Below are positions 741 to 63,287 of a DNA stretch of 64,000 nucleotides, one piece after another (the first letter of the stretch is position 1; every line of letters starts with the position of its first letter). This DNA comes from Octopus vulgaris (taxonomy: Eukaryota): assembly GCA_951406725.2 (NCBI GenBank), contig OX597828.1, positions 74,338,001 through 74,402,000 of the forward strand, given 5' to 3'. The notes below the pieces were generated by a model. The model was not told the origin of the DNA. It saw only the letters and a program-made list of their open reading frames with translations, and did no database searches. Made by a program: the position numbers and the translations under genes.

Positions 741-56614
<55,874 letters not shown>

Positions 56615-57262
56615 TTTCGCGTGTGTTTCTTTTTAAATCTGATTGTATGAGCTGAGAGGGAGACAGAAATAGAGAAGAAGAAACAATATACTTTCAACAT
56701 TCATCTGCAGGTAATTTAAGATAGGAAATATTAAAATTCATCAAGATATATCCTGATATGTCATCATTGTCACAGCCGTCGTTAGAGCGTCCATGGAGAG
56801 TGGCTTACTGGTTATGGCAATCCACATTTAAATCTGGTTAAGTTCACCTTTAAATGTTCTTCTTCTGTGGTCAGTTGGTAAAATGCAGAACCAGTCATGT
56901 ATATGTATACATGTGTGTGTGTGTGTGTGTGTAGATATAAAGAAAACAGACGTTAAAGGATGATGATGATGAAGGAGAGAAAGCAAACAGAGAGAGACAG
57001 ACAGATAACTACATACATGTATATATACGAGTCATTGTGTGCATCTGTTTATAGCATAGCATACATACACTCCACCTCCTCTCAGGAGAGGCTGTGTAGT
57101 AACTTGATTACCAACCCCATGGTTCTGGGTTCAATCCCACTGCACAGCACCTTGGGCAAGTGACTTGTACTATAGCCTCGGGTTAACCAAATCCATTGGT
57201 GTGCCAACAGAGAGTTTATGAAGTATTGTGCCCAGATTGATAATCTCTCGCTATTTGTTTTG

Positions 57263-57450: not shown

Positions 57451-58342
57451 AGAGGAATGTCCAAAAGAAGGGAAGACAGGGCAAGAAAATCGCCAATGAT
57501 ACACACACACACACATATATATACATATATATTTTTGTTAAAATTCTCATTCTTAATAATCTTCTTGATTACCCTAAAAAAAATTTTAACCTTATACAGT
57601 ATGATAATCTTGTTTGAAATGATCTTTAAAAACAAAAAGTTATTTGATTTTTCTCTTTCTCAAATGGCTCTACCCTCCTGATCCTAGTATTTATAAGGAC
57701 CTTTTATATAAATAACCTTTCTAAATAAGTACCAATAAGAAAATATAAATCCCATGTAGGGTGTAATAATAATAAATTCTTAAACCTATAATATAACCAT
57801 TAATTTTAAAAAAAGATTAGTGTAAAATAGGATTGTTCCATAACTTAATTATTCCTTTAGCCAACACCAAACATCAGTCTTTTATAGATATTATCTTAAC
57901 AAGTAAATATAATTTTTAGTCCAATATATTTTGAATTATAATATTTTTTCCTAAAAATTTTCTCTATTGGTGTTAACAAGCTAAATATACTTTACCATAG
58001 TATTAGTAATTAAGCCATTTTATCCCTTTTCTATGGTGTTCTGCCCTTGATAAAATTATTCTAAGTCTCGTATCTCTTTAAATTTCATACTCAGCTTATA
58101 TAAAGCTATGCTGATATATTCACTACAAAATCTGCTTAGATTAAAATTTTTTAATATATAATTAGCCTGTTCTTTCACCTCAATATTCCTTTATTAATAT
58201 CAATAAATATCATTTAATCAATATTCACAGATATCATCTGATAAGTTAGTATTTAAGTGTATAAATATTAAACTATTTCTATATTTTCTTTTTCTCCCTC
58301 TCTTGTGTTAAAAGTTTGATATATACTAAAAAGTATTTATAA

Positions 58343-58764
58343 ATAACGTAAGGGGGATCAGCCATCTGAATGTGGCTAGGGACAGGGCGGGGTGGTGGGG
58401 GTGTTACTGATGCATTTAGCCCCAGGCGATCATCGACGTCACCAGAAGGACCGACACCATCACGGTGTCCTTGCTAGCCTGTAAAAGGAGATCAGCCTCC
58501 CCGAAGATACGGATACTACATACGGACCGGTTTCGAGGTAATTGCCTCTTATCAACGTACGGTAAGCACTGTTCCTCGATGAAGGATTCTCTCTACAGGC
58601 TACATATATAAGGATTCTCCCTTTACAGGCTAGCAAGGACACCGTGATGGTGTCGGTCCTTCTGGTGATGTCGATGATCGTCTGGGGCTAAATGCATCAG
58701 TAACACCCCCACCACCCCGCCCTGTCCCTAGCCACATTCAGATGGCTGATCCCCCTTACGTTAT
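58343..58764. mobile_element. Inverted-repeat element (about 148-bp arms) with a central hammerhead; Penelope pseudo-LTR-like
   Basis: Arms 58343-58490 and 58617-58764 are near-perfect reverse complements; the element is GC-rich in an AT-rich context. Confidence 0.8.
58519..58561 (-). ncRNA. Minimal hammerhead with U3-A8 core variant
   Basis: CGTACG TTGATAA GAGG CAATTA CCTC GAAA CCGG TC CGTATG; GUC cleavage triplet. Confidence 0.8.
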
Positions 58765-59450
58765 AGAGCAGTTACTGTTTATATCTCGTTCAGAGATTTA
58801 TTATTATTTATAAATATTCTTCTTAATAATCTTGTTTTATAGTAGTTAACTGTAGTACTAAATGATAACACTTCCCCTGTCCCATTATCAATGGTCTGCT
58901 AATGGGCGATCCCTTAATTATCAGCTAACAACTTGTTTTAAGTTTTCCCTTACTAAACCTCGTGACATTGCTTCTAATAAATCTGGATTTTATGACTCCA
59001 CCATCTAGAATGTCTGTCTACTCCATCAACTCTACCCCAAACAGATACTACCCTCTGTTTTCTCTCAGCCTTAAATATACAAAGGATTTGATAAACTAGT
59101 CTAGAAATTAAAACTGACCCCATAAAACAAAAATAACAGAAAAATCAGTGACAGGCAGTGTCTTCTTGAAAAGAAATTTCAGTTACAACTATGATGTTGT
59201 TGGTACAACATGTTCTTTGTCTATCCCCTTAACTTCTTGGAGATCTTAGGTAAAATTATACTAATGTGTGCTTCTGTTCTAATTTAATTAAATTCTATGT
59301 CTTTGTGCAGCTGAAGATTACTCTACATTTTAAATTGATGTAATGAAATGATTGCATTGTTCAATTAAATGGAGTTGCATGAAACGATTGTACTACATTA
59401 CCTCTGGATATCATTGTTGCTTATTTTGAGATATATATGTGTGTGTGTGT

Positions 59451-59967: not shown

Positions 59968-60281
59968 GGAGATGTACTCGCATAGCAAGTGATTTGATCT
60001 GAGATCGTGTGCTGAAACAAAAACAATTGCAACGTGGACGGTGTTTGTAAGCCATTTAAGAAACACACAAAAGCCGTTCGATTCACATTTAACATTCAAC
60101 ATTTAAGTTTAATTTGTCAAAATATTTTCGTCGCTAAAATCCGCAAGCACGGATTTTTGTCAGTGAACAGGTCGCAGATTTTAGCGACGAAAATATTTTG
60201 ACAAATTAAACTTAAATGTTGAAGTGAATCGAACGGTTTTTGTGTGTTTCTTAAATGGCTTATAAACACCTTCCATGCTGC

Positions 60282-60285
<4 letters not shown>
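59967..60285. mobile_element. Inverted-repeat element with hammerhead, inserted in (TA)n
   Basis: Arms about 60025-60141 and 60177-60285; flanked by TA microsatellites. Confidence 0.75.
60156..60205 (+). ncRNA. Minimal hammerhead with G3-C8 core variant
   Basis: TTTGTCA GTGAACA G GTCGC..GCGAC GAAA ATAT TT TGACAAA. Confidence 0.72.
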
Positions 60286-60327: not shown

Positions 60328-61185
60328 GGCACAGTGAATATAATGTCATCTAAATCATGCTAAAATGAAATAACTTTTGATATCTCATTTTAACAGATAT
60401 ATTTACCAAAATTACATAAAAATATCTTGAAATACTAAAGAGTAAATTTATTCAATAAAATCCGACTTCAGAATCTTCTTCAAATTGTCTGGACGCTCTC
60501 TTTGTTTAAGTTGGTGAATGCTGCCATAATCCTTGCCTTCAGTTTATCTAGGGTGTTACAAAGAGTTTTGTTGGTCTCTCGCTCAACTGCACCCCACACA
60601 TAATAATTAAGAGGGTTGCAGTCTGGGGAGTTAGGAGGCCAGATGTTAGGGGTGATGTGGTTGCAGAAATTGTCTGACAGCCATGACTGGGTTCTCCTGC
60701 TTGTGTGGCATAGTGCAGAGTCCTGTTGCCAGACATAGGGTCTTCCAGCAGTCAACCTCTTGACCCAGTGCAACACTACCTCCTCCAAGCACTTGATGTA
60801 GGACTTTGTGTTGAACCTGAGTCCATGTGGGAAGGTGAATAAAGGCATAACATCACCATCACTAGCAGTCATTCCAAACACCATGATGTTGACTGGATGT
60901 TTGATTTTTATCACTCTCAGTACATGTTTTGGGGGCACAGCAAGCCAATGATTGTTCTGTGTTCACCATCTGTTCATATTGAAGCTTCCGGCACAAATGC
61001 CAAGCAGTATGGCATGTTGTTTCCAAATTTCTAGCTAAGTGAATTGTGTAATGGTGCTGTTTTTCTCTCACAGACAGTGCCCAACTGACCCTACTATACT
61101 GTGTAGTCGACAAAATCAAAAACAAACAATGCACATGCATGAAATTAAAAATATAAAATGGCAACAATTTACTCCTCACACCCTG
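60325..61185 (-). mobile_element. Internally deleted maT (DD37D) transposon
   Basis: CAGGG..CCCTG ends with TA; ORF 60480-60938 contains WQQDSA..(37 aa)..SPDCNPL(N)YYVW. Confidence 0.88.
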
Positions 61186-61227: not shown

Positions 61228-61715
61228 TGTATATTGGCAGGGCTGGCCTGCTAGGTAGCCGGCCAGAATGCTAGAAGAAGATCATCAACGATCAAACGAT
61301 CGAGATGCAAACCGCAAGACTAACCCTAGTCTAACTTGGGGTTAGTCTTGCGGTTTGCATCTCGAGGACCGAATGTACTGATGAAGTCACGGACACTTGA
61401 ATTATGCAAGTAATTCTTTTGTTAAGACCGAAACCGAGGTATACATTTAAGTCTGTTTTTTATTTAATTTTTCATATGTCCTGCCCGCCAAAGTTGGTTC
61501 TGGTGTTCGCTGAATTCTTCCTCTAGAGAATTTCCCTTGTAGTTTGATCGTTGATGATCTTCTTCTAGCATTCTGGCCGGCTACCTAGCAGGCCAGCCCT
61601 GCCAATATACAAATATATTTGAATTTTCTCTGACTCCTCAGATTTTTTGAATGCTGGACTACTGGTTTTAAATTGATATTAAAATTAATATTAATTTATC
61701 TCCCTCAATTTTTAA
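61228..61715. mobile_element. Doubly inverted-repeat element with hammerhead
   Basis: Perfect 70-bp arms 61228-61297 and 61542-61611, plus an inner 27-bp inverted repeat 61300-61326 / 61339-61365. Confidence 0.75.
61371..61448 (+). ncRNA. Minimal type I hammerhead ribozyme
   Basis: GAATGTA CTGATGA A GTC..(long loop)..GAC C GAAA CCGAGG TA TACATTT; GUA triplet. Confidence 0.75.
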
Positions 61716-62037: not shown

Positions 62038-63287
62038 CCAAATCACTGATCGCGGATCCTGGGTGGATGTTGTTTACCTGGACTTTGCTAAGGCTTTTAA
62101 CTCTGTGCCACACAAAAGACTTATGGTGAAGCTTTCTGCGTTGGGTGTAAGAGACGAACTCTTATAACTGGTTAAAGTCCTTTATTTTCGGCCGAAAAGA
62201 GGTTGTCACAGTTCTAGGACAGCACTCTTCGCCCTATGAGATGACATCTGGTGTGCCGCAGGGATCTGTTCTTGGCCCCCTTTTATTTGTTGCATATGTT
62301 AATGACATAGATGCCAACTTAAAGAATGCCACAGTGCTGAAATATGCAGATGACATCAAGCTGTACCTCGAAATAAAGAGGTCAAATCCTGTACACTATG
62401 GATCTCTATTGCAAGCAGACCTGGACACAATGCAGCAGTGGATCATGGACTGGCAACTCAAGCTGGCTGTGGACAAATGTACCACCATGCAGGAGAAACC
62501 CAGCGTCCATGAGAGGAGAAACCCAGCGTCCACCTACTCCCTCCACAACACTAGTCTCAAAAAGTCTTCAAGTGAACGTGACCTGGGTGTTATTGTCGAC
62601 AGCGATTTGCGTTGGACAAAACACATCGCTAAAATTGTCAAGAAGGCTGAGGGCGTCTTGGCATCACTCACCAAATCCTTTGTGAGCCGCTCTCCAGCTA
62701 TCTATCTGCGGCTTTATATAGCTATGGTAAGACCTCACCTGGAGTTTGCATCGCCGGTCTGGAGCCCCTATCTTGCCCAGGACATCAATCGTCTGGAAGC
62801 TGTTCAGCGACGTGCAACCAAAAGAATACCCTCCATCAGGCATTTGCCATATCCTGAACGCCTTACCTCCCTGGGCATGGACACATTGAAACTCCGACGT
62901 CTGGCAGCTGACTTGGCAGACACCCATAAAATTATCAACCATCGCACAAACAATAACTCTGAGCACCTCTTCAAACTCCACCCATCTAACACCCGTGGAC
63001 ATATTTACAAAGTAAGGAAACAGCACAGCTCCCATGACTTCAGGAAACATTTTTTCACGCTGAGAGTTGCTGAAGTGTGGAACAAACTGCCGACATCGGT
63101 TGTTAGTTGTCGGAGCACTGCTTCCTTCAAGACTTCCATGCTTCCTGAGATTCGCCAACACTACACTTGATTTTCTTCCCTCCATACACCCAGACATTTC
63201 TACACTACTGCATGTACTTTATATGCACTTTCTGACAAGTTGTGGTGCACCTGAGCACTGTATACAATAATTTCATTATATTATTAT
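62038..63287 (+). mobile_element. 5'-truncated CR1-clade LINE (RT domain, C-terminus, 3'UTR, ATT-rich tail)
   Basis: VDVVYLDFAKAF, SGVPQGSVLGPLLF, YADD, RPHLEFASPVWSPY, VQRRATK, TRGH, FF.LRV..VWNKLP; frame disruption near 62165. Confidence 0.93.

Follow-up and report, generated by a model that had tools for sequence, protein, structure and literature searches.

The insertion at positions 58346-58804 of the window (the whole 64,000-nt stretch of the Octopus vulgaris contig OX597828.1 that was analysed) is probably a solo, head-to-head pair of 5'-truncated pseudo-LTRs (pLTRs) of a Penelope-like retroelement (PLE), bearing a hammerhead ribozyme with a U3-A8 core that, as modelled, would cleave only as a dimer. 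As one copy of a common octopus repeat, the locus most likely arose as an ordinary insertion of a mobile element upstream of a gene. Its architecture combines an inverted 5'-truncated copy beside a direct copy with a 40-nt tail at one end and a 12-bp duplication of the AT-rich target site. The original prediction, which pictured a 148-bp inverted repeat, missed that there is a tail at one end, that the target site is duplicated and that the family has many copies, all of which point to a Penelope-like end. Membership is proposed from architecture, as no reverse-transcriptase (RT) or GIY-YIG endonuclease ORF was linked to the family; the metagenome and viral loci compared contained no family copy. 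The insertion and its surroundings comprise the following features.

56572..56651, minus strand: exon of the POMGNT1-like host gene that carries the ATG (56614-56612), placed by the pyrimidine tract and AG before it and by a protein match
57560..58345, continuing right of 58805 to 59200, no strand: older multicopy AT-rich repeat, the insertion target, represented by many diverged contigs
58334..58345, no strand: left copy of the target-site duplication, 12 bp, palindromic and AT-only, identical to 58805-58816
58346..58491, minus strand: left arm, the 3' part of a longer pLTR-like copy, without the tail, placed by arm pairing
58473..58603, minus strand: long interrupted rod extending helix I of the hammerhead, with loop-1 nucleotides adjoining helix I, from the fold and the HH9 alignment
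58519..58561, minus strand: canonical type I hammerhead with U3-A8, from sequence, strict descriptor and Rfam alignment
58582..58632, no strand: inversion junction, where a 7-nt spacer separates the two copies of a 21/23-nt duplication, from sequence comparison
58616..58764, plus strand: right arm, a short inverted, 5'-truncated pLTR-like copy, placed by arm pairing
58742..58804, plus strand: ATG and 21 open codons through the arm end and the tail, a candidate element ORF start, from the reading frame and a sister-family consensus
58765..58804, plus strand: tail, 40 nt, on the right side only, from contig depth and loose ends
58805..58816, no strand: right copy of the target-site duplication, identical to the left copy and supported by contigs

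The insertion measures 459 bp. Its inverted arms (58343-58491 and 58616-58764) are real, as had been predicted, with 149 nt each and 3 mismatches (98% identity); the span of 58343-58764 first assigned to the element falls short on the right, where the element reaches 58804. Arm pairing starts at 58343, the outer 3 nt being common to the left arm and the target-site duplication. The left arm abuts the duplication and the right arm stops 40 nt inside it; the arms are not terminal repeats. When 20,000 placements were drawn at random, a looser version of the 12-nt flanking direct repeat arose in 0.63% of them. The two arms carry the same letter at 58450 and at the mirrored site, where 84% of the depth in sequencing run X1 differs; copying of both arms from a single template would give this pattern. 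The junction contains TATATA at 58605-58610, readable on both strands. The proposal that the insertion is recent holds in that it is fairly young, with 3 of 149 arm positions differing and all 12 of the 12 duplicated target positions identical. In one of four runs (X1), a single contig passes from 58331 to 58805 across one intervening letter, its shorter side being 21 letters; this joined form probably derives from other copies of the host repeat. Because the flanks are themselves repetitive and the joined contig is short-sided, it supports the boundaries of the insertion and not an insertion polymorphism. The target repeat has no open frame, and a six-frame search with X at stops gave no Pfam match below E 0.1.

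Contigs of four runs (X1, X3, X7 and X12, out of 24 runs listed) were compared over 57560-59420. The family represented by 58346-58804 is abundant and high-copy: summed depth from about 58340 to 58805 lies far above that of the flanks in three organisms (A, B and C). In bins of 62 nt, the summed depths in X1, which are not copy numbers, are 661,775 at 58379-58441 (the outer arm end), 62,649 in the ribozyme bin and 4,283 in the junction bin; individual X1 pieces reach depths of about 15-66. In both X1 and X3, depth in the junction bin is about 1/15 of that in the ribozyme bin; this drop upstream of 58568 may be due in part to the changes and the junction particular to the copy analysed. Family sequence runs 40 nt beyond the right arm, after which contigs diverge, with loose ends behind 58805 in 57 (X1), 52 (X3) and 8 (X12) contigs and an agreement between contigs of 0.49-0.61. 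Among 40 of the 294 difference rows, near-fixed family differences from this copy occur at 58570 and 58575, and none occurs at 58555 or 58550; read by eye, the changes of this copy from the family majority at 58570 and 58575 weaken the rod. In metagenomes, a tight family pattern gave 0 matches and relaxed patterns gave no family copy among the matches listed; the sole BLAST match among the relaxed-pattern loci listed was a 31-nt core match (locus L067). In X12, guessed to be RNA, two 151-nt pieces with a depth of 2-2.5 are identical to the locus flanks; they were not accepted as evidence of transcription.

On the minus strand, positions 58561-58519 read exactly as originally quoted and constitute a type I hammerhead motif that is real and well formed. 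Helix I (58561-58556 with 58524-58519) has 6 bp including one G-U; the core UUGAUAA (58555-58549) places U3 at 58555 and A8 at 58550, supporting the U3-A8 pair first proposed; helix II (4 bp) pairs GAGG with CCUC around the 6-nt loop CAAUUA and is followed by GAAA; and the palindrome ACCGGU occupies 58531-58526, with the predicted GUC cut after C17 (58525), between 58525 and 58524. The core has the nucleotides of a type I hammerhead, positions 3 and 8 form a Watson-Crick pair and the cut site is of the NUH kind; besides U3-A8 the rest of the core is intact. A strict descriptor matched the window at 58519-58561 and gave no match in any of 40 approximately dinucleotide-shuffled windows, and a loose descriptor matched 5 sites in the real window against 0.3 per shuffled window. 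Among 241 core-pattern matches in 240 metagenome and viral loci, a helix II of at least 3 bp together with a helix I of at least 4 bp was present in 6, and values of at least 4 and at least 6 bp, respectively, were reached by 1. An Rfam scan of 151 bases gave Hammerhead_HH9 as its sole match (24 bits, E 3.6e-4), below the gathering score of 52; a scan of 10 kb gave no hammerhead among 62 matches.

The build is that of canonical metazoan hammerheads, with no unpaired base after A9 and without the long helix II of minimal PLE motifs. The HH9 alignment passes through the nucleotides flanking helix I and loop 2 (the loop-contact nucleotides), which, with the 6-bp helix I and the 4-bp helix II, replaces the earlier description of the motif as minimal. 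Assignment to the minimal PLE hammerhead of Cervera and de la Pena (2014), defined by an unpaired base between 9 and 10.1, a long helix II and no helix III insert, was considered and rejected.

In the fold of the whole element, helices I and II have pair probabilities of 0.74-0.98. Of the three stems said to pair, two do so in this fold; helix III in the monomer amounts to 2 bp with a 2-nt loop and is open in the computed fold, so that a single molecule does not close it, and the 6-bp intermolecular ACCGGU helix forms only in the modelled dimer. The double-hammerhead dimer is modelled at -25.7 kcal/mol, against -16.6 kcal/mol for two open monomers. Since helix III cannot close in the monomer, cleavage is likely to need a dimer, and the palindromic helix III region suggests the same, in keeping with what had been predicted from it. 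The surrounding rod at 58603-58473 (131 nt), which extends into the arm, folds at -46.8 kcal/mol (z -3.4), with 1 of 300 shuffles as stable, for a segment picked after inspection of the fold; the 124-nt spacer on its own folds no better than shuffles (z 0.46). Within the rod, the stretch preceding the ribozyme (58603-58581) can pair with 58500-58473 (-23.8 kcal/mol).

The U3-A8 pair, including the UUGAUAA core, is a rare but already described variant, so the rarity first implied for it is not supported. According to the available text of PMC3088659 it is natural and active in vitro, and the accessible part of PMC4209133 counts about 1,300 U3-A8 motifs in Schistosoma mansoni, gives the UUGAUAA core in its Fig. 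S3, traces U3-A8 cores to searches with Cercyon PLEs and also describes the canonical metazoan build. The octopus motif resembles the S. mansoni hammerheads in its 3-8 covariation, its UUGAUAA core and its palindromic helix III region; the S. mansoni motifs, as described there, are minimal, having one additional unpaired nucleotide behind A9 and lacking an insert in helix III, whereas the octopus motif has the canonical build of 6 and 4 bp, a CCGG insert and the loop-contact nucleotides. From the available descriptions of non-LTR retrozymes (PMC7229834) and of HH9 (RF02275), it shares with these the 6-bp helix I, the 4-bp helix II, the 6-nt loop 2, a weak palindromic helix III and long self-paired surroundings, but differs in its U3-A8 core and in scoring 24 bits against the cut-off of 52. 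Neither the combination of U3-A8 with the canonical loop-contact build nor this family was found in the literature searched, which was mostly open to readers without a subscription; supplements or repeat databases may contain the family. In squid, the available text of PMC6962438 counts 235 Rfam hammerheads.

The closest counterparts of the whole insertion, as portrayed in the accessible portions of the sources, are the pLTRs of endonuclease-bearing PLEs such as Pen2a_Av of Adineta vaga (PMC3846280) and PAc of Anolis (PMC11167929), with which it shares a head-to-head inverted truncated copy, a one-sided tail, a target-site duplication of about 10 bp, an AT-rich target, about 21-22 codons in pLTR and tail (in the octopus copy a candidate frame), a TATA-like run near the junction and a hammerhead in sense orientation. 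PLE insertions typically have a 5'-truncated copy in inverted orientation and, at one end, a tail of 30-40 bp (PMC8557442, in part). For Pen2a_Av, the text seen of PMC3846280 gives a 9-10-bp duplication, a 31-bp tail, the first 22 codons in pLTR and tail, and a TATA run and palindromes at the junction; for PAc, that of PMC11167929 describes cutting of both strands in AT-rich DNA, a tail that is the stretch between two RT start sites, and a hammerhead that is protein-assisted and dispensable for insertion in vitro. Unlike these elements, the octopus locus has no ORF body, and none is linked to it; about 220 nt separate its hammerhead from the candidate ATG position of the same copy, whereas the PAc hammerhead overlaps the start codon.

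Contigs have loose ends before 58768 in all four runs (74 in X1, 93 in X3, 60 in X7 and 6 in X12), showing a sister family that shares the tail. The tail at 58768-58805 is common to this abundant sister family, which has a different upstream sequence. By eye, the sister-family consensus has ATG at the 58742 position in X7 and X12 and GTG in X1 and X3, and the X12 consensus matches, ungapped, at 16 of 26 letters. From the reading frame we infer that ATG 58742 is the start of an element ORF; it is kept as a candidate because two protein searches with the tail frame, both of low power for 21 residues, found no homologue (20 candidates, none at E<=10, in one, and 0 matches at E<=0.001 in the other). 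Octopus Naiad families are listed in PMC8557442, and the 58765-58804 tail was not found in the available part of its supplement.

The hammerhead itself counts against a plain pLTR origin: according to the accessible text of PMC7229834, canonical type I motifs of animals occur mostly in tandem retrozymes, and most animal PLE hammerheads are minimal. The family could instead be a non-autonomous non-LTR retrozyme, propagated as tandem repeats and small circular RNAs, of which this locus would be a dispersed piece moved by Penelope-like enzymes. A canonical hammerhead with loop-contact nucleotides inside a long self-paired rod is as described for retrozymes in that source, and retrozymes are proposed to derive from pLTRs and to leave monomers (bioRxiv 10.64898/2026.07.22.740005, in the portion available, where Xenopus retrozyme dimers are cleaved in vitro in 1 of 9 cases and not in the other 8). 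Retrozymes, however, form tandem arrays, whereas the window holds no tandem copy but a single dispersed copy with its inverted duplicate; the variable loose ends behind 58805 do not enter a next unit; none of 15 of the 69 joints loops back across the element; and the tail has an ATG-led open frame at a position shared with the sister family. We regard a retrozyme as rather unlikely. The whole hairpin might also be a MITE or foldback DNA element whose terminal inverted repeats captured the hammerhead, or that amplifies as a fixed unit, as the length and 98% identity of the arms and the depth peaks towards the outer ends would allow; yet the termini are asymmetric, the tail follows the arm in other copies (X12 loose end before 58360), and the junction is far shallower than the ribozyme in X1 and X3, which makes such an element very improbable.

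There is scarcely any prospect that the host has kept this copy as a regulatory ribozyme cutting the POMGNT1-like pre-mRNA. The sense orientation 1.9 kb upstream of the ATG, and helices I and II that stay formed within the long hairpin, would suit that function, but closure of helix III in cis is not possible, the insertion is young and nested in another repeat, and its departures from the family majority at 58570 and 58575, read by eye, weaken the rod. That the hammerhead match arose by chance, or that U3-A8 reflects two independent decay mutations in this copy, deserves almost no credence: although the score is below the Rfam cut-off and the letters of other copies at 58555 and 58550 are not directly visible in the 40 of 294 difference rows, the shuffled windows gave 0 of 40 matches, the remaining core is intact, and those rows include 58570 and 58575 and neither core position.

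If the insertion is a pair of PLE pLTRs, a Penelope-type endonuclease and RT would have cut the two strands of AT-rich DNA at staggered positions and made two copies of the element RNA. Copying from the tail end would have given the short copy on the right, and a second round starting 40 nt further in would have given the long copy on the left, extending through the ribozyme. Given the complementarity of 58603-58581 to 58500-58473, the two cDNA ends would be complementary, and the copies probably joined where the extended helix I of the RNA makes them so; the duplication at 58582-58632 would be the trace of this joining. An alternative is self-priming with an antisense RNA or DNA strand as template (PMC3846280, in part), and the present data do not distinguish between the two mechanisms. 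The ribozyme would act on behalf of the element and process tandem transcripts by way of the 6-bp intermolecular ACCGGU helix, and a lone copy would be largely silent in a host transcript. This would add an octopus family to the hammerhead-bearing Penelope-like ends, one whose hammerhead escapes C3-G8 descriptors and Rfam cut-offs and whose many copies are a natural set for testing the role of the ribozyme in such elements and the formation of head-to-head junctions. Existing knowledge of hammerheads or PLEs is unchanged.

The ribozyme lies in sense orientation to the POMGNT1-like gene, at the distance originally estimated as about 1.9 kb (1.94 kb from U3 to ATG 56614). The N-terminus encoded by exon 56651-56572 is identical to that of two proteins (P0002 and P0003), later exons map down the minus strand, and an octopus POMGNT1-like protein aligns with the exons, for the most part at 90-100% identity. 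Because a splice acceptor stands 37 nt ahead of the ATG, a further exon should lie upstream; the element is plausibly intronic, within a 5'UTR intron, or it may lie upstream of the gene. It is conceivable, though improbable, that expression of the element switches on trans-cutting of host pre-mRNAs, dispersed sense copies being cut only when another family RNA pairs with them via ACCGGU; sense copies, such as that upstream of the POMGNT1-like ATG, would then become conditional cleavage sites.

The window contains a second head-to-head hammerhead pair, at 51701-51900, of the minimal C3-G8 PLE type (cores 51774+ and 51750-), which was counted for the Penelope-like reading, and further copies of that minimal type at 24109-24215, 24487-24586 and 39722-39802. 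Among the metagenome and viral loci, L051 (738-790, minus strand) has a U3-A8 hammerhead with the same ACCGGU palindrome, followed directly by (TCACCC)n, a layout resembling the telomere-type repeats beside hammerheads of endonuclease-lacking PLEs, and 148 nt from it there is a partial second hammerhead copy. Two further U3-A8 motifs, whose helices have 4 bp, are at L014:688-717 and L021:256-286; the former is followed after 55 nt by an ORF that matches one 511-aa hypothetical protein and gave no credible Pfam match. Near the insertion, the window also contains a nested inverted repeat at 60025-60285 with arms of 62 and 50 nt, a weak DDE_3 remnant at 60480-60962, an apparently duplicated segment at 61230-61600 that includes a hairpin (61292-61373), and a reverse-transcriptase remnant at 62151-63170 (RVT_1, E 3e-18).
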